A stretch of 64,000 bases of DNA from Candidatus Nomurabacteria bacterium (lineage in GTDB: Bacteria > Patescibacteriota > Minisyncoccia > Phycocordibacterales > UBA918): contig CP060228.1 in the NCBI GenBank assembly GCA_023898565.1, positions 560,594 to 624,593 on the forward strand, written 5' to 3'. Positions 1 to 55,033 of the stretch are shown one piece after another. Within the stretch, counting starts at the first letter, position 1; each line of letters opens with the position of its first letter. The notes under the pieces are model-generated. The model was not told where the DNA came from and ran no database searches. It saw only the letters and a list, made by a program, of their open reading frames with translations. Both the position numbers and the translations under genes were made by a program.

Positions 1-81
1 TTGCCAGCTATTTTGGAGCGAGCGAACAAAATAGCGACAACCTGTACCGAATCTGTAAGATTCAAATCCTCCCGTCGACAC

Positions 82-632: not shown

Positions 633-635
633 TTG

Positions 636-709
636 CGCGCCAGACGGGACTCGAACCCGCAACCTCCCGCGTGACAGGCGGGTGCTCTAACCAGTTGAGC
701 TACCAGCGC
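636..709 (-). tRNA. tRNA-Asp (anticodon GTC)
   Basis: Cloverleaf on minus strand; anticodon loop cTGTCAc; T-loop TTCGAGT; acceptor GCGCTGG/CTGGCGC. Confidence 0.85.
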
Positions 710-757: not shown

Positions 758-782
758 CGCTTTCTTTGATTAGTATTCCCAG

Positions 783-811
783 TTGTGTGATGCGATGAAT
801 TCCTCTAGAAT
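783..811 (+). promoter_or_regulatory. Sigma-70-like promoter for the tRNA-Thr pair (TTGTGT-17-TAGAAT)
   Basis: -35 at 783-788, -10 at 806-811, tRNA 5' end at 821. Confidence 0.45.
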
Positions 812-820
812 ATTTTTCGT

Positions 821-949
821 GCCATCTTAGCTCAGTTGGTAGAGCGTAGCATCCGTAACGCTAAGGTCCGGAGTTGACCTAGTTTTTATTGACCGGAGGG
901 AATATAAAAACGGAAATACTCTCGTGGTGCGATCCTCCGAGATGGCTCA
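821..949 (+). tRNA. tRNA-Thr(CGT)-like gene interrupted by a 54-nt insertion in the T-loop; anticodon loop tCCGTaa has C33
   Basis: Acceptor GCCATCT/AGATGGC, D-arm GCTC-AGTTGGTA-GAGC, anticodon arm like E. coli thrW; T-stem CGGAG...CTCCG; removing 876-929 restores canonical T-loop TTCGATC. Confidence 0.5.
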
Positions 950-1005
950 AAAGCTGGCGTAATGATCATTGATTTGTTATGCTGTCGGTCATTAATGATG
1001 ATTAC

Positions 1006-1081
1006 GCCAATGTAGCTCAGTTGGTAGAGCGCATCCATGGTAAGGATGAGGTCCCCAGTTCAATCCTGGGCATTGGCTCCA
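1006..1081 (+). tRNA. tRNA-Thr (anticodon GGT), CCA encoded
   Basis: Canonical cloverleaf; anticodon loop aTGGTaa; T-loop TTCAATC; 3' CCA present. Confidence 0.9.
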
Positions 1082-1452: not shown

Positions 1453-2337
1453 ATGTCAGACGGAAAGATAGACGCACAAAAACGGATTGCCGAAATTGAA
1501 ACAGCCATGCTACTGCCTGATTTTTGGAGTGACCCACAGAAAGCGCAAGTAATGATTAAGGAGCTGCAAGAACTCAAGGATACTGCGGAAGGAAAAGGAA
1601 AGTATGATCGTAGTGATGCTGTCTTTACGATTGTGGCCGGCGCCGGTGGTGACGATGCGGAAGATTTTGCGCGCATGCTGGTCGAGATGTACCAGCGCTA
1701 TGCGGAAGGAAAAGGTTGGGGAATGGTGGTGATAGACAGTAATGCCAATGATCACAACGGCTATCGCAATATTACACTTGAGGTACAAGGGAAGGGGGCG
1801 TATGGGGCACTGCAGCACGAATCGGGTGTCCATCGCTTGGTACGTATCTCGCCGTTTAATGCTAACGGCAAGCGACAGACGTCATTTGTGTTGGTGGAAG
1901 TGTCACCGCGCCTGGAAGATACGTCGGCAGTTCAGCTCAAAGATGAGGACTTGGATATTTCGTTTGCGCGCTCTGGTGGGGCTGGTGGGCAAAATGTAAA
2001 TAAGCGTGAGACAGCGGTGCGTATTGTGCATAAGCCAACGAACATTTCAGTACACATTTCTTCGGAACGGTCACAGCAGCAAAATCGTGAAAAAGGAATG
2101 GCGCTGTTGGCTGGAAAAATTTTTGCGTTTGAAGAGGAGCAGCGTCGTCGGGAGCTACAAGGTCTTGCGGTCGAAAAGACGCTTAAGATTGAGTGGGGCA
2201 GTCAGATTCGTTCGTATGTGCTGCATCCATATCAGCTTGTAAAAGATCATCGCACCAACACCGAAGTACGCAATGTTGACGCGGTCTTAGGGGGTGATAT
2301 AGAGCCGTTTATTGAGGCTTCGGCCCAGTCTAATTAG
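1453..2337 (+). CDS. prfB: Peptide chain release factor 2, compact form with no programmed frameshift
   Basis: SPF motif (RISPFNANG) and GGQ motif ([11 protein letters not shown]); continuous 294-aa ORF with shortened domain 1. Confidence 0.85.
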
Positions 2338-3168: not shown

Positions 3169-4089
3169 ATGGTCACCGCGTTTCGTAGAGTAGTAAAAGC
3201 AGGATTTGTTGGGTTTTGGCGCAATGCGTATGTATCGCTTGCGTCTATCTTCGTGCTTACTATTGGGTTGTTTGTGATTGGAGCAACTATGTTCCTCAAT
3301 CAGCTGTTGCAGACATCACTGATGACCTTGCAATCAAAGGTTGATATCAATGTTTATTTTGTTCCCGATGCTCCGCAGGAAGAGATTGACCGCATTATGC
3401 AAGCAGTGGAAGCCTTGCCGGATGTATCAGGCGTAACCTACACTTCACGCGAAGATGCATTGGCTAAGTATCGTCTCGAAAATAAAGACGACACCGTGGC
3501 GATGCAGGCACTTGAAGAACTCAATGAGAACCCGCTCGGTGCCAACATTGCGGTCCAGGCCAAGCAGACTTCACAGTATGAGAGTATTGCGCGTTTTCTG
3601 GACGAGCAGCGCGAGCTCGAACAGCCTCAAACGCCGGTGATTGATGAGGTGAACTACAACCGCAATCGCGATTCAATTGATCGTCTAACAACCATCATTG
3701 GGGCGACTGAGCGGGCTAGTCTGGTAGTGATGGGTATTCTGTTGATTGCCGCTATCCTCATTACGTTTAATACTATCCGCTTGGCGATTTACACATCTCG
3801 CGAAGAAATAGCCATTATGCGTTTGGTGGGCGCTGGCAACATGTACATCCGTGGACCATTTATGTTGCAGGGCATTATGTATGGATTCATTTCTGGTGTA
3901 TTGGCGTTAGCATTCTTCTATCCAATGCTCATCTGGCTTGGTCCAGCGACGGCAGAATTTTTTGGAGTCGATCTCTATCAGTACTACATTTTAAACTTCG
4001 GTGAAATCTTTGGGGTATTGGTCGGCATTGGTATCGTGCTTGGACTTATTTCAAGTATCTTAGCAGTGGCTCGCTACTTGCGAACCTAA
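3169..4089 (+). CDS. ftsX: Cell division permease-like protein FtsX
   Basis: N-terminal TM, periplasmic loop, three C-terminal TM helices; typical FtsX N-terminus. Confidence 0.8.
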   Translation: MVTAFRRVVKAGFVGFWRNAYVSLASIFVLTIGLFVIGATMFLNQLLQTSLMTLQSKVDINVYFVPDAPQEEIDRIMQAVEALPDVSGVTYTSREDALAKYRLENKDDTVAMQALEELNENPLGANIAVQAKQTSQYESIARFLDEQRELEQPQTPVIDEVNYNRNRDSIDRLTTIIGATERASLVVMGILLIAAILITFNTIRLAIYTSREEIAIMRLVGAGNMYIRGPFMLQGIMYGFISGVLALAFFYPMLIWLGPATAEFFGVDLYQYYILNFGEIFGVLVGIGIVLGLISSILAVARYLRT

Positions 4090-6153: not shown

Positions 6154-6179
6154 AAAATAATACCGGATCGTCTAATGGT
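6154..6179 (+). repeat. 26-nt direct repeat copy of the 5' end of tRNA-Gln (plus 7 upstream nt)
   Basis: aaaataataccggatcgtctaatggt identical to 6299-6324; followed by two hairpins (6183-6216, 6222-6254). Confidence 0.8.
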
Positions 6180-6305
6180 TGCCAGAAGTTACAGAGCGAA
6201 GCGACAATAACTTCTGAGTACATCTGATTTTCTTTCTCCAAAAGAAAATCAGATGAAAAGCGCCAAAGCTGACAGTATCGGTCGAAGTGACGTACAGAAA
6301 AATAA

Positions 6306-6376
6306 TACCGGATCGTCTAATGGTAGGACTCCAGGTTTTGGTCCTGGCTATCTAGGTTCGAGTCCTAGTCCGGTAG
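6306..6376 (+). tRNA. tRNA-Gln (anticodon TTG)
   Basis: Acceptor TACCGGA/TCCGGTA, anticodon loop tTTTGgt, T-loop TTCGAGT; no encoded CCA. Confidence 0.8.
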
Positions 6377-6403
6377 CATTTACCCCTCATCCTTTCGAGG
6401 TTG

Positions 6404-46541: not shown

Positions 46542-49484
46542 CTACTGCCAGAATGACAAACTTCCGCCAAAGTTGCGCAGCCAATTAGTGAAGCGTCCCA
46601 ACATGTTCGCTGGCAAGAGCGACGCACTGCGGTATTGAATGGTGGTGGTTTGTGTTGACCAATTTATTTTGTCGCCAAGAAGAATCATTTTACGTTGTGT
46701 AACAACAGTTGGCTTTTTTGTCGCTACAGTATTGTTCACCCTTACATCTCCAGCTGGCAATGGTGAGCTATTAGGTACGGCAGTATTCGCAACTGGTTTT
46801 GCTGATGAGGCTGTGCTATCTCGATAGTGGGCTATTTCTGCAATTTGTTCAGTACTGAGCGGAAAGGTGATGGTGTTGGCACAGTATATCTCATTGATTT
46901 GTTTCTGGGTGGTGTAGTACACGTATCCCGTCGGATCAGTGATTCCCCATGGTATGAGTATGGTGGCACGATGTCTTCGCTGAAAATCGCGTACGGCTCG
47001 TTCGGTCGCTTGATCAAAGTGGCCAGTAGGAACGAGGCTTGTGTCAATCTGCTCTTGCAAAAATCGTTGCAGCTTCAGTACCTCGGTCGGGTCATTGTTT
47101 GCTCCGGCGCGAAGGTAGTCTTGTAGATATGGTTCACAGCTGGCGCTAGTAGAGATACCGAGTACTTGTGGCTGCGCTCCAGTGATTTTGATAGGTGTCG
47201 TAGCAATTTCAGAATCGTACTCCTGCATAAATTGCGCCTTTCTATTTTTATGGTACCCAAGCACTTGCGCGCTGTTGGTGTACGTACCGGGACCAATTTC
47301 GCTGTCGAAGGTAATTTCATAGGTAACCGTGATAGTCTCGTCAGCATCAATCGTGTAGAGTGGCCAGTTTTGGTCCAGCACAATACCATCTGCTTCATCG
47401 TAAAGTGTGTCGTACAAAATGCCGTTAAAGACCGGTCCTCCGTGGTTCGTAATGGCTACTTCGTACTCGACAGTATCACCAGGGAGAATGATTTCTTTGT
47501 TAGCAGTTTTGGTGATTTCAATATCGGCATTTCGAGTAATATCATTGGCGCCAAAACCGTTGCTATTAGAGTGCCCCCGAGTGATATTTTCAGCAATAAC
47601 GGTTACCACTTCTTCATTATTGGCGTGATTTTCGTCAGGCTCAGCGCTGGTAATAGAGGCGGTTAGATTAATAGGGAACGAACCGTTTGGGAGTGTGTCT
47701 GTCACACGCGCAGCGTAGGTGAGTTCGACCATCTCACCTGGTTCAATGGTGCCGAGGGAAATATTTTGTAGCGGAGTATTAAGTTGAATCAGGCTACTGT
47801 CTAGGACGCCGTTTAAAACCACATTGTTGGCAGCGCTGTCGCCAAGATTGCTGACAGTGAAGGTGTATTCAATCGCGGCGCCAGACCCAGTGTTGCCGCC
47901 GATGGCACTGGCTGTTCCGCCAATCCAAAGATCAGGTTGGCCAAATGAAAGATTGCCCATCCAATCGCCAAAAATATCAAAGATAAGGAGCGACCAGTTG
48001 CGACCAAGGATGTTGGTGTTTGCGATGTTGGTGATGTTGGTAGTGGCGTAGGCGTCACCAGTTTCGATGTGGCTGAGACTATCACCAGAAGTGCTGTTGC
48101 CACCGGTGGATGCGCTGACCGAAACGTTGTTTTCAATATCGGCAATGTTCACAATGTCGGCCGATATGCCACGGGTGGCGGGGGTGGTTTGGCCACCAGT
48201 ATTAGTGATCGCGATGCCCCCGGGAGTCGCAAACCAGCTGAGGTTGTCTGGCAATCCGAAGACCGAACCGTTCCAGTCGCCATGGATACGGAAGAGCATG
48301 ACAAACGAATCGTCATTAACCACGTTAGTATTCACTTGATTGTATACGTTGGTGTAGGTGGTGGCGTCGCCGGTGTCAATGTAGCCACCGCTGGTGGAGG
48401 CAGTCGAAGACGCGGCGTTGCCTCCGGTGTTGGCGGTGGTGGTTACGTGATTTTCAATCGTGGCTTGATTGTCTGCCTGATAGGCGAGCGCGCTGACGCC
48501 GCTCGTGTATTGAAAGAGTTTTTCGAGCAATGATTTGTTTGGCAGGACGATGTCGCCAAGTAGGTCACCGAAGTTACTGAACGAAAGCACAAGGTAGTTG
48601 GCATCAATAATATTGGTGTTGGTCACGTTGGTCACGTTGGCGCCGGCGTAGGCGTCGCCAGTGATGATCGCTGCGCCACTGCCGCTGGCGTGATTCCCAC
48701 CAGTGTTGGCGCTCACAGTGACGGTGCTGGAGGTGGTGCTGTAGTTGTTGAGGAGATACTGCTCAAGACTTGCTCCATCGCAACCATCAGAGCTACAGCG
48801 GCCGGTGCTGGTGTCGGAGAACACATCAAACATATCTCGAATGTCGACGGTACCTGCGCCAAATAGCTGATTGATAAAGGCAATGAAGCCAGTGGAGTTG
48901 ATGATGTTTGTGTTGGTGAGGTTAACGACATTGGCGTAGGCATAGGCATCGCCAGTCACGATAGCGCTCGGGCCATCACCCGCTGCCGTGTTGCCGCCAG
49001 TGTTGGCACTGGTGGTGGCGTTGTTTGTGGTGGTGGCATGGTTATCTATGGCGATGGTTGAGCTCGCTACTGCATCGGTCGATGTGGCGGTGGAGCTGGC
49101 GTCAAGGGCATGAAGGGGAGTGGTGGTAGGAGTTGAACTAGCGGTTGGTACGAGGCTGTCTTCAGTGGAAGAAGCTATTTCGGTGTCACCTTCGCTGCTG
49201 GTGCTACTTGCGGTGTTAGCAGCTTGGCCAGCGGCTTGTTCAGTGCTGGTGGCAGTACCTTCAGTATCAATCTTGTTGGTGTTACTGGTGATGACTGTGT
49301 CACTAATCGCTACGGCGTCGCCGGTGTCCACAATCGCATCTGGTGTTAGTTCGACTGGTTCGGCCGTTTGCGCTAGGGCGGTCGCTCCTGGCGAGAGAGT
49401 TAGAATCATGCCACAAATCAGCAGACCGCTGACTGCACGAGTAAAGTGCTTGGATGGCTTAAAAAAGTTGTTCCACATACGCAT
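46542..49484 (-). CDS. Large secreted repeat protein: four approximately 78-aa repeats (ANTGGN..G....I.TGDAYA..NV.N.TNTNI...F..FGDW.G), then CARDB-like region and C-terminal peptidoglycan-binding domain
   Basis: Signal peptide; internal repeats; PG_binding_1-like LKLQRFLQEQIDTSLVPTGHFDQATERAVRDFQRRH; longest ORF extends to 49547. Confidence 0.7.
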   Translation of the reverse strand: MRMWNNFFKPSKHFTRAVSGLLICGMILTLSPGATALAQTAEPVELTPDAIVDTGDAVAISDTVITSNTNKIDTEGTATSTEQAAGQAANTASSTSSEGDTEIASSTEDSLVPTASSTPTTTPLHALDASSTATSTDAVASSTIAIDNHATTTNNATTSANTGGNTAAGDGPSAIVTGDAYAYANVVNLTNTNIINSTGFIAFINQLFGAGTVDIRDMFDVFSDTSTGRCSSDGCDGASLEQYLLNNYSTTSSTVTVSANTGGNHASGSGAAIITGDAYAGANVTNVTNTNIIDANYLVLSFSNFGDLLGDIVLPNKSLLEKLFQYTSGVSALAYQADNQATIENHVTTTANTGGNAASSTASTSGGYIDTGDATTYTNVYNQVNTNVVNDDSFVMLFRIHGDWNGSVFGLPDNLSWFATPGGIAITNTGGQTTPATRGISADIVNIADIENNVSVSASTGGNSTSGDSLSHIETGDAYATTNITNIANTNILGRNWSLLIFDIFGDWMGNLSFGQPDLWIGGTASAIGGNTGSGAAIEYTFTVSNLGDSAANNVVLNGVLDSSLIQLNTPLQNISLGTIEPGEMVELTYAARVTDTLPNGSFPINLTASITSAEPDENHANNEEVVTVIAENITRGHSNSNGFGANDITRNADIEITKTANKEIILPGDTVEYEVAITNHGGPVFNGILYDTLYDEADGIVLDQNWPLYTIDADETITVTYEITFDSEIGPGTYTNSAQVLGYHKNRKAQFMQEYDSEIATTPIKITGAQPQVLGISTSASCEPYLQDYLRAGANNDPTEVLKLQRFLQEQIDTSLVPTGHFDQATERAVRDFQRRHRATILIPWGITDPTGYVYYTTQKQINEIYCANTITFPLSTEQIAEIAHYRDSTASSAKPVANTAVPNSSPLPAGDVRVNNTVATKKPTVVTQRKMILLGDKINWSTQTTTIQYRSASLLPANMLGRFTNWLRNFGGSLSFWQ

Positions 49485-49887
49485 GTAAATAATTAAGCAG
49501 AGCCTCAAGCTGTGACCAGAGCTCAGCTGGTGTGGTTGAGGTTGCAAAGGCGGAGGGGAGCTTTGTGGATGTCTGGTCTAATGAAAACGTGCTGCTGGAG
49601 GTGGTACCAGACGTGGAGCGCACGATACTGGTCTGCGTGGTTACTGTGCCACCAGTGGTGGTAGCGAAATGGTACGACGATCTCTCCCCGTTAATAACCG
49701 TCGTCTGTGACATCTCCACACTGCTCACGCCGCCGGTGTCGACATGCGCGCTGGTTATAATCTCAGTAACACTGCTGCTTTGAGATGCTGCAAACAGCGG
49801 CTCTGGGAAGCAGAGTATGATACCGAGTAATAGTGTGTACCCGAGTCGGGTATTGGTGTGGAATGGTTTCATATCCTTCATGCCCAA
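49459..49887 (-). CDS. Secreted Thr/Ser-rich protein (142 aa)
   Basis: Signal peptide; TGGV...TGGT motifs; overlaps start of the downstream large gene. Confidence 0.5.
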   Translation of the reverse strand: MGMKDMKPFHTNTRLGYTLLLGIILCFPEPLFAASQSSSVTEIITSAHVDTGGVSSVEMSQTTVINGERSSYHFATTTGGTVTTQTSIVRSTSGTTSSSTFSLDQTSTKLPSAFATSTTPAELWSQLEALLNYLHAYVEQLF

Positions 49888-49953
49888 ACTTCGATATGAG
49901 AGCTCAAAGTCTGGGCAAAAGGAGCGAGGCTCCCTTTGCGTTAGGGCGTGTGC

Positions 49954-51126
49954 TTAGCGCACAAGCACGCGCACACGATTAACGATGTTGGTTAGTTCTG
50001 AGCGAGTGTCAGCAGCGCCAGTGAGCACTGAGCCACCATCCGAACTCGTACCACCGTTACCACCACTACCAGTGGTAGCGTCATCTACCTCTTGATCGGC
50101 GTTATCATCGCCGTCACCTCCTTCATTCTCAATATCACCACCGTTACCACCGCTTCCGGCGTAGCTACCATCAGCGTAGTTATCACCAGTGTCGGCCTTG
50201 GTGCGGATACTGTTCATGAGGAAGGCGGAGTCGCGAAGATGGACGCGAATTCGATTGAGGCTCGAAGTGGCGTCGCAGCCACAGTTATCTACAGTAACCG
50301 TAGCCGAATTTACGTCGTTGCCGACGGTGCTTTCAGCAGTCGCATCACCCGTCTGCACCGCACCACCAAAGCCACTGTTACCACCGGTACCACCGTTACC
50401 AGTGGTAGCCCCTTCAACATCTTGCTCACCATACTCATTCTCAATATCACCACCGTTACCGCCGTCACCGGCGTAACTACCATCAGCCGAGTTGTCTCCA
50501 GTGTCGGCTTTGGTCTCGACGTGGTTCATGACCATGGCGTCACCGTGGAGTGAGATGTGGACACTAGTCGGTTTTTGTGGTTTTGGTTCTGGGCAGGTCT
50601 CATCGTAATCAGCGGTAAAGGAGTCAACATCGAAACCGTCAGAGGTATCGTTGTGTAAGCTAGAGTCTGTGGTGTCTACAACACGCACATACTGATAGCA
50701 CTCTTCAACACGGAGCTCTGACGCGCCGTCACCGTCACCTTCTTCGTTGGTGGCCTCACCAACGAAGGTCCACGGTCCAGCCGGGTTGGTGCTGACATAG
50801 ACGTCAGCAGTTTCGAGTGGATAGACACCGCCGGTCACTTCCTGCACGGTGAGAAGGAGATTCCCGCTCATGTTCTGTGCAAAGCCGACGACGAGTTCAC
50901 CGCCGTAGCCGAGCGACACAAACGATCCGTCAGCGACGCCAAGAGCGGCGCTTGGATCAGAGCGAGCGGGGGCAACCACAGCCCCGTTTTTTTGAAGTCC
51001 TTGGCTGAAGGACTCATTGCTACTCGCGTTATCGGTAGCAGCAAACGCAAGGGTTGCGCTCACAAAGAACAAAGAGAGGATCAGTGCGAGCAAGCTAATT
51101 CGTTGTAAAATTGATGCGTACGTCAT
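49954..51126 (-). CDS. Secreted repeat protein (390 aa), paralogue of 51261..51998
   Basis: Signal peptide; ADTGDN.ADGSYAG.GGNGGDIENE repeats; C-terminal 177 aa nearly identical to paralogue. Confidence 0.7.
   Translation of the reverse strand: MTYASILQRISLLALILSLFFVSATLAFAATDNASSNESFSQGLQKNGAVVAPARSDPSAALGVADGSFVSLGYGGELVVGFAQNMSGNLLLTVQEVTGGVYPLETADVYVSTNPAGPWTFVGEATNEEGDGDGASELRVEECYQYVRVVDTTDSSLHNDTSDGFDVDSFTADYDETCPEPKPQKPTSVHISLHGDAMVMNHVETKADTGDNSADGSYAGDGGNGGDIENEYGEQDVEGATTGNGGTGGNSGFGGAVQTGDATAESTVGNDVNSATVTVDNCGCDATSSLNRIRVHLRDSAFLMNSIRTKADTGDNYADGSYAGSGGNGGDIENEGGDGDDNADQEVDDATTGSGGNGGTSSDGGSVLTGAADTRSELTNIVNRVRVLVR
50011..50541. repeat. 531-bp near-identical direct repeat, copy A (copy B at 51321-51851)
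   Basis: Only a handful of mismatches across 531 bp; covers the 3' halves of the two paralogous genes. Confidence 0.9.
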
Positions 51127-51260
51127 ATGTAATGATGATTTAAACTGGTTAATAAAGATATATAGAACCCTTTATTAAGACCTTGTCATCGACTGTGGTG
51201 ACCAGATCTTAAGTAAGGGGAAGAGAAGTGTCTCTTCACACCCTACTTAGCACTAATCAA

Positions 51261-51998
51261 TTAGCCGCGAACGCGAACGAGTCGGCTGTTTACCAAGTTG
51301 ACGAGATTGGTGCGTGAGGTAGCAGCTCCAGTGAGCACTGAGCCACCATCCGAACTCGTACCACCGTTACCACCACTACCAGTGGTAGCGTCATCTACCT
51401 CTTGATCGGCGTTATCATCGCCGTCACCTCCTTCATTCTCAATATCACCACCGTTACCACCGCTTCCGGCGTAGCTACCATCAGCGTAGTTGTCGCCAGT
51501 GTCGGCCTTGGTGCGGATACTGTTCATGAGGAAGGCGGAGTCGCGAAGATGGACGCGAATTCGATTGAGGCTCGAAGTGGCGTCGCAGCCACAGTTATCT
51601 ACAGTAACCGTAGCCGAATTTACGTCGTTGCCGACGGTGCTTTCAGCAGTCGCATCACCCGTCTGCACCGCACCACCAAAGCCACTGTTACCACCGGTAC
51701 CACCGTTACCAGTGGTAGCCCCTTCAACATCTTGCTCACCATACTCATTCTCAATATCACCACCGTTACCGCCGTCACCGGCGTAACTACCATCAGCCGA
51801 GTTGTCTCCAGTGTCGGCTTTTGCCTCGACGTGGTTCATGACCATGGCGTGGCTAGCGATAGAGATTTCTACGCCAGAATGAAAATTGTGATAGCCTTCT
51901 TCATTCGCGTACGCAACTTGGGTTGCAAAGAAAGCTGCAACCATGAGTGCTGCGGCAGCAAGTGCGCCGCTCACCACTCGTGTATATGTAGTCGTCAT
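51261..51998 (-). CDS. Secreted repeat protein (245 aa), paralogue of 49954..51126
   Basis: Signal peptide; same repeat motifs. Confidence 0.7.
   Translation of the reverse strand: MTTTYTRVVSGALAAAALMVAAFFATQVAYANEEGYHNFHSGVEISIASHAMVMNHVEAKADTGDNSADGSYAGDGGNGGDIENEYGEQDVEGATTGNGGTGGNSGFGGAVQTGDATAESTVGNDVNSATVTVDNCGCDATSSLNRIRVHLRDSAFLMNSIRTKADTGDNYADGSYAGSGGNGGDIENEGGDGDDNADQEVDDATTGSGGNGGTSSDGGSVLTGAATSRTNLVNLVNSRLVRVRG
51321..51851. repeat. 531-bp near-identical direct repeat, copy B
   Basis: See copy A. Confidence 0.9.
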
Positions 51999-54838: not shown

Positions 54839-54934
54839 GTGACCGATACAAGACTTGCACCACAAGAGTATTTCCGAAATTATGGTCGAATAAAATTCTC
54901 CCTAATTTCTAGGTCAACTTGTGGCCTCTACAAT
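54839..54934. repeat. Fragments of the tRNA-Val 3' half duplicated downstream of the gene (54839-54857 and 54916-54934)
   Basis: gtgaccgatacaagacttg and acttgtggcctctacaatg are exact copies of tRNA segments. Confidence 0.8.
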
Positions 54935-54960
54935 GAAGACGGCGGGTATAAAAATTTCGG

Positions 54961-55033
54961 TGACCGATACAAGACTTGAACTTGTGGCCTCTACAATGTC
55001 AATGTAGCGCTCTACCAGCTGAGCTAATCGGTC
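54961..55033 (-). tRNA. tRNA-Val (anticodon GAC)
   Basis: Acceptor GACCGAT/ATCGGTC; anticodon loop tTGACat; T-loop TTCAAGT. Confidence 0.85.

Follow-up and report, generated by a model that had tools for sequence, protein, structure and literature searches.

An interruption in a tRNA gene raises a simple question: is it removed from the RNA of a working gene, or has it put the gene out of use? We address this question for a threonine tRNA gene, tRNA-Thr(CGT), in a 64,000-nucleotide stretch of the Candidatus Nomurabacteria contig CP060228.1 (hereafter the window). The gene is split in its T-loop by 54 nt, for which the preliminary description offered three readings: a novel intron, an insertion scar, or a pseudogenising insertion.

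The split stands as first described, in sequence and in coordinates: 821-875 and 930-949 form the two parts of the tRNA, and 876-929 lies between them (Table 1). The break follows T-loop position 55 (TT, 874-875), and CGATC resumes at 930. The parts provide an acceptor stem (GCCATCT/AGATGGC), a canonical D arm, an anticodon arm (TAGCA-TCCGTAA-CGCTA), and a T-stem (CGGAG/CTCCG). In native 821-949, neither ARAGORN nor Rfam at threshold calls a tRNA; Rfam gives a partial match to 821-879 at 24.4 bits, under its threshold of 29 bits. When 876-929 is removed in silico, ARAGORN calls a 74-nt tRNA-Thr(CGT) with the T-loop TTCGATC restored, as had been proposed. The boundaries of the insert are fixed and allow no 1-base slide: the left flank ends in T, the insert begins and ends with G, and the right flank begins with C. 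Three features of a functional tRNA-Thr(CGU), namely a contiguous cloverleaf, U33, and an intact 7-nt T-loop, are missing from 821-949. The neighbouring tRNA-Thr(GGT) is canonical, again as described, and scores 66.1 bits in Rfam.

Table 1. Positions in the window of the split tRNA-Thr(CGT) gene, its syntenic neighbours, and the two copies of element E
Feature	Position	Strand	Evidence
tRNA-Thr(CGT) 5' part, positions 1-55 (acceptor, D arm, anticodon arm, variable loop, T-stem 5' strand, T54-T55)	821..875	+	ARAGORN after deletion; orthologue alignment
Anticodon CGT	854-856	+	
C at tRNA position 33	853	+	T in three intact orthologues
Element E, 54-nt copy: GA, hairpin, 16-nt tail AAATACTCTCGTGGTG	876..929	+	Covariance model R1, 73.6 bits, E-value 4e-21; family alignment A1
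Imperfect hairpin of E, CC to GG, E positions 3-38	878..913	+	RNAalifold consensus, covariation
Conserved single-stranded 3' tail of E	914..929	+	Invariant columns in A1; also 28 copies found without the search motif
tRNA-Thr(CGT) 3' part: C56 to T-loop end, T-stem and acceptor 3' strands, downstream TCA	930..949	+	ARAGORN after deletion; orthologue alignment
Intact tRNA-Thr(GGT), syntenic neighbour	1006..1081	+	ARAGORN, Rfam
Intact tRNA-Asp(GTC), syntenic neighbour	635..709	-	ARAGORN, Rfam
Second E copy, 58 nt	54858..54915	-	R1, 68.2 bits; sequence read
Partial tRNA-Val(GAC) copy, positions 37-55, 19 nt, adjoining the E 5' end	54916..54934	-	Same layout in six conspecific assemblies
Partial tRNA-Val(GAC) copy, position 56 to 3' end, adjoining the E 3' end	54839..54857	-	Same layout in six conspecific assemblies
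Intact tRNA-Val(GAC), 24 nt upstream of the interrupted partial copy	54959..55033	-	ARAGORN, Rfam

Orthologous loci, found through PrfB (window 1453-2337), come from relatives whose PrfB is 86-89% identical, on contigs labelled Kaiserbacteria and Nomurabacteria. Three relatives (loci L127/L128, L129, and L131) hold an uninterrupted tRNA-Thr(CGT) at the syntenic place upstream of prfB. The order there is tRNA-Met, tRNA-Asp on the minus strand, tRNA-Thr(CGT), tRNA-Thr(GGT), and prfB, with tRNA-Thr(GGT) missing in L131. Conservation of the insertion in relatives had been suggested as a check, and in all three the site is empty. The joined halves from the window are identical to these orthologues at 71/75, 71/75, and 69/75 positions, so the split gene is neither chance nor a misreading. 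The abnormal C at position 33, which the preliminary description had singled out, is T in 3/3 intact orthologues and is therefore derived; it is a lineage-specific change consistent with relaxed selection on this sequence. The other exon differences are compensatory stem changes at 4/69 and 50/64 and a purine swap at T-loop position 57, while an A31-C39 mismatch is common to the orthologues and hence native to tRNA-Thr(CGT). The sister strain at L001 has an identical PrfB; there, about 760 nt (L001 1787-2550) replace window 768-1003 and contain no tRNA-Thr(CGT). This replacement segment encodes a 217-aa membrane ORF where the split gene stands in the window. The site is thus empty in relatives, filled in the window, and gone with its gene in the sister strain.

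The insert, which we call element E, occurs twice in the window: a scan for repeats matched 904-930 to 54857-54883. On the minus strand of the latter region, tRNA-Val(GAC) (55033-54959) is followed by a 24-nt spacer, tRNA-Val positions 37-55, a copy of E, and tRNA-Val from position 56. The Val-associated copy is 58 nt long, begins GACCTAG, and ends CGGAAATACTCTTGTGGTG. It shares its T-loop position and its ends with the Thr insert; the hairpin stems differ, being GAAATTA/TAATTTC in the Val copy versus GTTTTTAT/ATAAAAAC in the Thr copy. Within the window, covariance model R1, built from 61 E copies, recognises these two sequences and no others (73.6 and 68.2 bits). Both the partial tRNA-Val copy and E are missing from relatives L219 and L221, and neither window copy is kept at orthologous sites of related species. 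In the conspecific assembly L214 (GCA_020428845.1), the Val-associated copy is identical except for a tail mutation, GTGGTG to GTAGTG. General pairing of the E tail with the 5' exon was considered and rejected: it fits the Val copy (CTTGTGG/CCACAAG) alone, and the tail is constant while flanks vary. Elsewhere in the window, 47900-51900 holds long internal direct repeats: units of 300 nt, at 94% identity and a distance of 1310 nt, and units of 97-114 nt, at up to 99% identity. They suggest one or more large repetitive proteins.

All copies of E share three features: a 5' GACC(T/A)A, a covarying hairpin of variable sequence, and the near-invariant tail GGAAATACTCTTGTGGTG. The layout is 5'-GA, CC-(T/A)A, stem, apical part, stem, GG, tail AAATACTCTTGTGGTG-3', with a length of 52-58 nt and a mode of 54; the apical region holds a purine-rich GGAG motif. 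In the RNAalifold consensus, columns 3-20 pair with 28-43, and 10/12 pairs have compensatory changes. Paired cells make up 90.6% of this structure versus 69.0% in shuffled alignments, cells changed on both sides number 148 versus 44.9 expected, and the covariation score is 0.546 versus 0.174; for each measure, 0/500 shuffles reached as high a value. When the partner is slid by 1-3 columns as a control, pairing falls to 34-53%. G-T cells (43) far outnumber A-C cells (7) in the stems, which places selection for the fold on the E strand, whether in RNA or in single-stranded DNA, and not on the complementary strand. The hairpins are thermodynamically weak (DNA fold z -0.8 and -2.3), and the evidence for structure is therefore covariation and not energy.

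The family was sampled with one motif, the 18-mer GGAAATACTCTNGTGGTG (17 fixed bases), in a species-representative genome collection of 2 x 596 Gb. The motif matches at least 120 loci of this collection, where about 70 chance matches are expected for 17 fixed bases. Among the matches listed, about 29 lie in other phyla and have no further similarity, several of them inside uvrA, and about 88 loci hold the whole structured unit, nearly all labelled Patescibacteria. The chance matches in uvrA fall in the codons for GNTLVVIEHN (L028, L036, L063, L124, and other non-CPR loci). The labels of the E loci are Saccharibacteria, Paceibacterota, Parcubacteria, Nomura-, Kaiser-, Lloyd-, and Taylorbacteria, Minisyncoccia, or simply "bacterium." Four of the E loci lie in MAGs labelled Flavobacteriaceae or Crocinitomicaceae (L085, L096, L106, and L118; contigs of 1.4-22 kb), which are either mis-binned CPR contigs or signs of a wider host range. 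Five IMG/VR contigs match the 18-mer, and 0/5 show the E structure; a phage origin was rejected.

Near-invariance of the tail is in part ascertainment, the tail having been the search query. Run on 660 kb of listed CPR loci, R1 finds at least 128 E copies; 28 of the 128 are without the exact search motif yet keep the tail GGAA(A/G)T(A/G)C(T/C)CTTGTGGT(G/A), so ascertainment alone does not account for its conservation. The 5' GACC(T/A)A, never part of the search motif, is more than 90% conserved in alignment A1, and for the tail and the 5' end alike, conservation extends to distant CPR classes. Element E is a non-coding repeat family with a unit length of 52-58 nt, and this one motif search found it almost only in Patescibacteria (CPR).

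Where do these repeats sit? A logo from 68 non-redundant E flanks has T at -2 in 41/68, T at -1 in 62/68, C at +1 in 49/68, A at +3 in 45/68, and C at +6 in 41/68. The target reads T(T)^CRAAYC, that is, GTT^CRAAYC (the caret marks a junction), which is the DNA form of the tRNA T-loop; often the right flank of E alone is T-loop-like. ARAGORN finds a tRNA within 400 nt of 29/84 E copies, against an estimate of about 4% for random places that assumes a 1-Mb genome with about 45 tRNA genes. Among the listed loci, two complete tRNAs are split in the T-loop by E: Thr(CGT) in the window and Ser(CGA) in L086, both of them C34 isoacceptors that a U34 isoacceptor can replace. The remaining tRNA-like targets are partial copies 24-130 nt from the intact gene. 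E occurs in both orientations relative to tRNA-like targets and also in intergenic DNA; beside tRNA-Ile(TAT), for example, it lies in the antisense T-arm CTTGGACT^CGAACCAAGG (L008, L055, and L069). Since TTCGAA is palindromic, the two orientations fit recognition of DNA and not reverse splicing into tRNA. Copies also stand head to tail (GTGGTG^GACC; L021, L033, L076, and L112) or nested within one another, where a run of T precedes the inner copy (L034, L030, L042, and L071). None of 72 E junctions (0/72) lies in a reading frame open across 800 nt, though the genomes are densely coding.

Comparison of filled with empty sites shows that no target bases are duplicated or lost. In L021, five E copies occur within 8 kb, each in the context GGCGACGTCGTAGANGATGTT^CGAACTGTGTTTGAGA, and a protein search with the read-through ORF of this locus led to an uninterrupted version, P0243. 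The context is a repeat of about 70 nt; direct inspection found five copies of it uninterrupted and at least seven that E splits precisely at GTT^CGAAC. L033 and L048 have filled and empty repeats within the same contigs. These pairs identify E as a discrete insertion with exact ends.

Several of the sites deserve description in their own right. The ~70-nt repeat, GGGCGACGTCGTAGAGGATGTTCGAACTGTGTTTGAGA..GATGA..TATATTCC, lies between gene cassettes in L021 (2346-6777) and also occurs in L023, L033, L048, and L225; the cassettes around it include nucleotidyltransferase, toxin-antitoxin, ECF sigma, and other genes in a layout like that of a cassette array. This frequent target of E translates to a conserved peptide, GDVVEDVRTVFERL.DE..YIP. 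In Paceibacterota (L007, L019, L034, and L095), a REP-like palindromic repeat, GTCATTCTGAACTYGATTCAGAATCCACGTCG, is found both intact and with E in its loop. The Saccharibacteria locus L011 has, on its minus strand at about 3400-3750, an intact tRNA-Thr(TGT) and, after it, two successive partial copies of the tRNA 3' end spaced about 70 nt apart; the second of them continues into the 3' half of an E copy. Hairpins that look like distant relatives of E also occur beside tRNA sequences. One in window 1-46 (TTGCCAGCTATTTTGGAGCGAGCGAACAAAATAGCGACAACCTGTA; R1 12.4 bits at 4-36) is followed at 61-84 by a repeat of the tRNA-Met 3' end (TTCAAATCCTCCCGTCGACACAAA); the intact tRNA-Met itself falls just outside the window, on its upstream side (L001 877-951). 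The same element is present after tRNA-Met in L127/L128 as well, and L131 has two copies. Similarly, a duplicate of the tRNA-Gln 5' end, 19 nt long (TACCGGATCGTCTAATGGT), lies 140 nt upstream of the intact gene (window 6166-6214; gene 6306-6377) and is directly followed by a hairpin of the distant E type, TGCCAGAAGTTACAGAGCGAAGCGACAATAACTTC (R1 15.3 bits).

We consider it very probable that element E is a non-autonomous mobile element, inserted at the DNA level into a dispensable tRNA-Thr(CGU) gene that is now probably a pseudogene. The pseudogenising insertion is the one of the three initial readings that fits: E is a repeat family with exact ends, and its presence at many non-tRNA sites, in both orientations, in tandem, and nested is the behavior of inserted DNA. 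The novel intron is left without support, and a random insertion scar is ruled out by at least 128 copies that have the same ends and a covarying hairpin. The element would have entered between positions 55 and 56 of the gene; separation of U55 from C56 would destroy the T-loop/D-loop elbow, and no normal tRNA would form. Loss of tRNA-Thr(CGU) would be tolerated through wobble reading of ACG by tRNA-Thr(UGU).

The codon ACA needs tRNA-Thr(UGU), which reads ACG too by wobble. Among the Thr codons in 33 long ORFs of the window, ACA accounts for 18% and ACG for 19%; tRNA-Thr(UGU) must therefore exist in the genome, its gene being absent from the 64-kb window, and loss of the CGU isoacceptor should be tolerable. 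The sister strain at L001, which has no tRNA-Thr(CGT) at this locus, indicates that a strain lives without the gene. The split gene may be decaying or already dead, as the change of U33 to C and the loss in the sister strain would suggest. The tRNA-Thr(CGT) gene has probably been inactivated by the insertion and become a pseudogene. As a sign of decay, a single substitution such as C33 is thin evidence: the split tRNA-Ser(CGA) in L086 shows no decay, and the Thr halves make a perfect tRNA apart from C33. The insertions may be recent.

Could E be the remnant of something larger? A recombination site left over from larger integrative elements, in the form of joined arms or an att-type scar, is one possibility; a tyrosine or serine recombinase would have acted there with its crossover in the tRNA T-loop, and E would not move by itself. 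Work by Williams from 2002 on the sublocations of tRNA integration sites is said to place T-loops among the targets of integrases. Many E copies adjoin partial copies of a tRNA 3' end that follow an intact tRNA gene, as displaced att fragments would; the T-loop likeness of the right flank alone and the arrangement of L021, with E between gene cassettes, would also be in keeping with such an origin. We nevertheless think it unlikely, given that E stands alone between unduplicated flanks in tRNA-Thr(CGT), tRNA-Ser(CGA), and the ~70-nt repeat. A direct tRNA repeat on both sides, as att sites would leave, is absent around 876-929, and a partial tRNA duplication is present at the Val copy. Furthermore, the joined E ends (GTGGTG^GACC) and the target (GGTT^CGAA) have no common core, the copies (at least 128) keep the same length and ends and include tandem and nested ones, and no long element bounded by E-like ends was found.

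An intron is the more tempting alternative: E would be an RNA element cut from the tRNA-Thr(CGU) precursor, the halves would be joined, and the gene would still function. The agents proposed are a hypothetical endonuclease with an RtcB-type ligase, or self-cleavage. The exact boundaries, the perfect T-loop restored by removal, exons intact apart from C33, and a hairpin selected on the transcribed-sense strand (G-T far above A-C) are all as expected of an intron. So is a short insert at a non-anticodon position of a tRNA, which recalls the archaeal bulge-helix-bulge introns, whose non-canonical sites include the T-loop. E differs from these in its bacterial host, in its copies outside and antisense to tRNAs, and in its fold: the bulge-helix-bulge that the preliminary description proposed looking for in 876-929 is absent, both by inspection, with only ACC/GGT (3 bp) pairing beside the junctions, and in MFE and centroid folds of 821-949. 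Patescibacteria are intron-rich, and a recent survey of their tRNA introns deals with group I introns at position 35/36 only, T-loop or short inserts going unmentioned (PMC13011429, mSystems 2026). E resembles these introns in phylum, in hiding tRNAs from gene finders, in following U (-1 T in 62/68), and in ending with G in nearly all copies, the shared ends being a weak criterion alone. Group I introns, however, run to hundreds of nucleotides (more than about 200 nt), have a catalytic core, and occupy the anticodon loop; E has 54 nt, lies in the T-loop, and gives no RF00028 match at the gathering score or at an E-value <= 10.

No other Rfam intron or ribozyme family matches E, even at an E-value <= 10, and 54 nt is well under the sizes of known self-splicing cores. 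An intron also fits poorly with copies that are antisense to tRNA-like targets, tandem, nested, or intergenic, with the absence of junctions from long ORFs, and with targets that are redundant C34 isoacceptors or partial tRNA copies only; in the window, C33 is derived, and the sister strain lives without the gene. We therefore hold excision from a functional precursor to be quite unlikely. A T-loop mini-intron of 54 nt that is mobile at the DNA level and spliced by a Patescibacteria-specific activity seems improbable on the same grounds; were it true, tRNA-Thr(CGU) and tRNA-Ser(CGA) would stay functional and E would be harmless in transcripts.

It is highly improbable that E is a host-selected module (a small RNA, a processing or stability signal, or a protein-binding site) with the split tRNA as a by-product or a regulated tRNA-like RNA: conservation of the tail and 5' end across distant CPR classes, one-strand covariation, and the apical GGAG motif would suit such a role, but the position relative to genes is inconsistent, no Rfam family matches, and selfish repeats typically show what E shows, namely both orientations, tandem and nested copies, and filled/empty polymorphism. 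Frame 1 of the 54-nt copies is open (DLIFKE..YKNGNTLVV), and a translated in-frame insertion, like the Rickettsia palindromic elements, was also rejected: lengths of 52-58 nt do not keep to multiples of 3, some copies contain stops (L023 and the Val copy in the window), and the covarying stem changes alter the peptide.

If E is a mobile element, to which known systems is it closest? It appears to be undescribed and to belong with the small non-autonomous bacterial repeats. No Rfam 15 family matches E at the gathering score, and an E-value <= 10 yields chance-level matches (CRISPR-DR43 with E-value 9, and others); keyword searches on CPR repeats, MITEs, and T-loop insertions yielded no description of it, and none of the papers searched contains the motif. 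Like REP/BIME with their RAYT (Y1 HUH) transposases and like PATEs, which are non-autonomous and derive from IS200/IS605, E is a short, non-coding, hairpin-forming, strand-asymmetric repeat with no terminal inverted repeats and no target duplication, lies 3' of a short motif, and would be moved in trans. It differs from both in its single hairpin with a 16-nt tail, its lack of a GTAG/CGTC head, its T-loop-like target, its hairpin sequence that is free to vary, and its distribution, which is not clustered around RAYT genes. The 20-40-nt palindromes with a GTAG/CGTC head and flanking RAYT gene that define REPs and REPtrons do not describe it. With PATEs it shares the lack of inverted repeats and duplication and a location 3' of a fixed motif, although this motif is just T(T) with a right-flank preference; it has one hairpin, and no cognate longer TnpA-type element with the same ends was found. 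IS200/IS605 ends, in turn, have two hairpins.

Rickettsia palindromic elements, Correia/NEMIS, and BOX/RUP are, like E, small selfish repeats confined to particular lineages and able to insert within genes, RNA genes among them. Compared with MITE-like repeats, E, at 54 nt, is much shorter, lacks terminal inverted repeats, makes no TA or other duplication, and is almost never inside long ORFs; its ends, GACCTA... and ...GTGGTG, are not inverted repeats, and filled/empty comparisons reveal no duplication of the kind left by a classical MITE. Rolling-circle elements of the IS91 family insert next to GTTC/CTTG without duplication. E resembles them in its GTTC-like target, the lack of target duplication, and its asymmetric ends; it differs in splitting GTT^C instead of abutting the motif and in its size of 54 nt, and no Y2 transposase was seen. 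The family is set apart by the combination of a single covarying hairpin and 16-nt tail, a T-loop-like target, a CPR-wide range, and no linked transposase.

How might such an element move? An enzyme acting in trans would mobilise E in the form of a folded single strand, namely the E strand. By analogy, the mobilising enzyme could possibly be an HUH-type single-strand transposase of the IS200/IS605/RAYT or IS91 kind, a tentative suggestion prompted by the exact asymmetric ends, the lack of inverted repeats and duplication, the strand-specific hairpin, insertion 3' of T(T), and the head-to-tail tandems. A less radical novel reading than a new intron is that E would represent a single-strand transposon of a new type, with one hairpin and an enzyme that recognises T-loop-like DNA. 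Linkage to RAYT or IS200-like Y1 transposases was examined by tblastn against the E loci, with Y1 transposase queries, and was rejected. Y1_Tnp genes (PF01797) lie 0.4-5.6 kb from E in 4 of about 85 listed E loci (L081, L084, L064, and L038), the L081 gene (2400-3065, minus strand) being 360 nt from E. These four loci looked promising, but 80 metagenome loci with relatives of these Y1_Tnp genes (332 kb) contain no E; L089 has the same insertion site as L081 and no Y1_Tnp gene. The E loci likewise contain no candidate for an autonomous parent: neither orphan pairs of 5' and 3' ends with an ORF between them nor a long element with E-like ends.

At this locus, the tempting reading of a novel bacterial T-loop intron gives way to that of a mobile element inserted in a dispensable tRNA gene. 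Element E is a structured mini-element widespread in CPR bacteria and was found in neither Rfam 15 nor the searchable literature. Its insertions hide tRNA genes from standard finders and can thereby distort the tRNA complements reported for CPR bacteria. The T-loop-like target, the frequent partial tRNA copies, and the near-invariant tail point to a trans-acting enzyme at work in very small genomes, and the filled or empty state of E sites can serve as a natural marker in strain-level population genomics of CPR bacteria.
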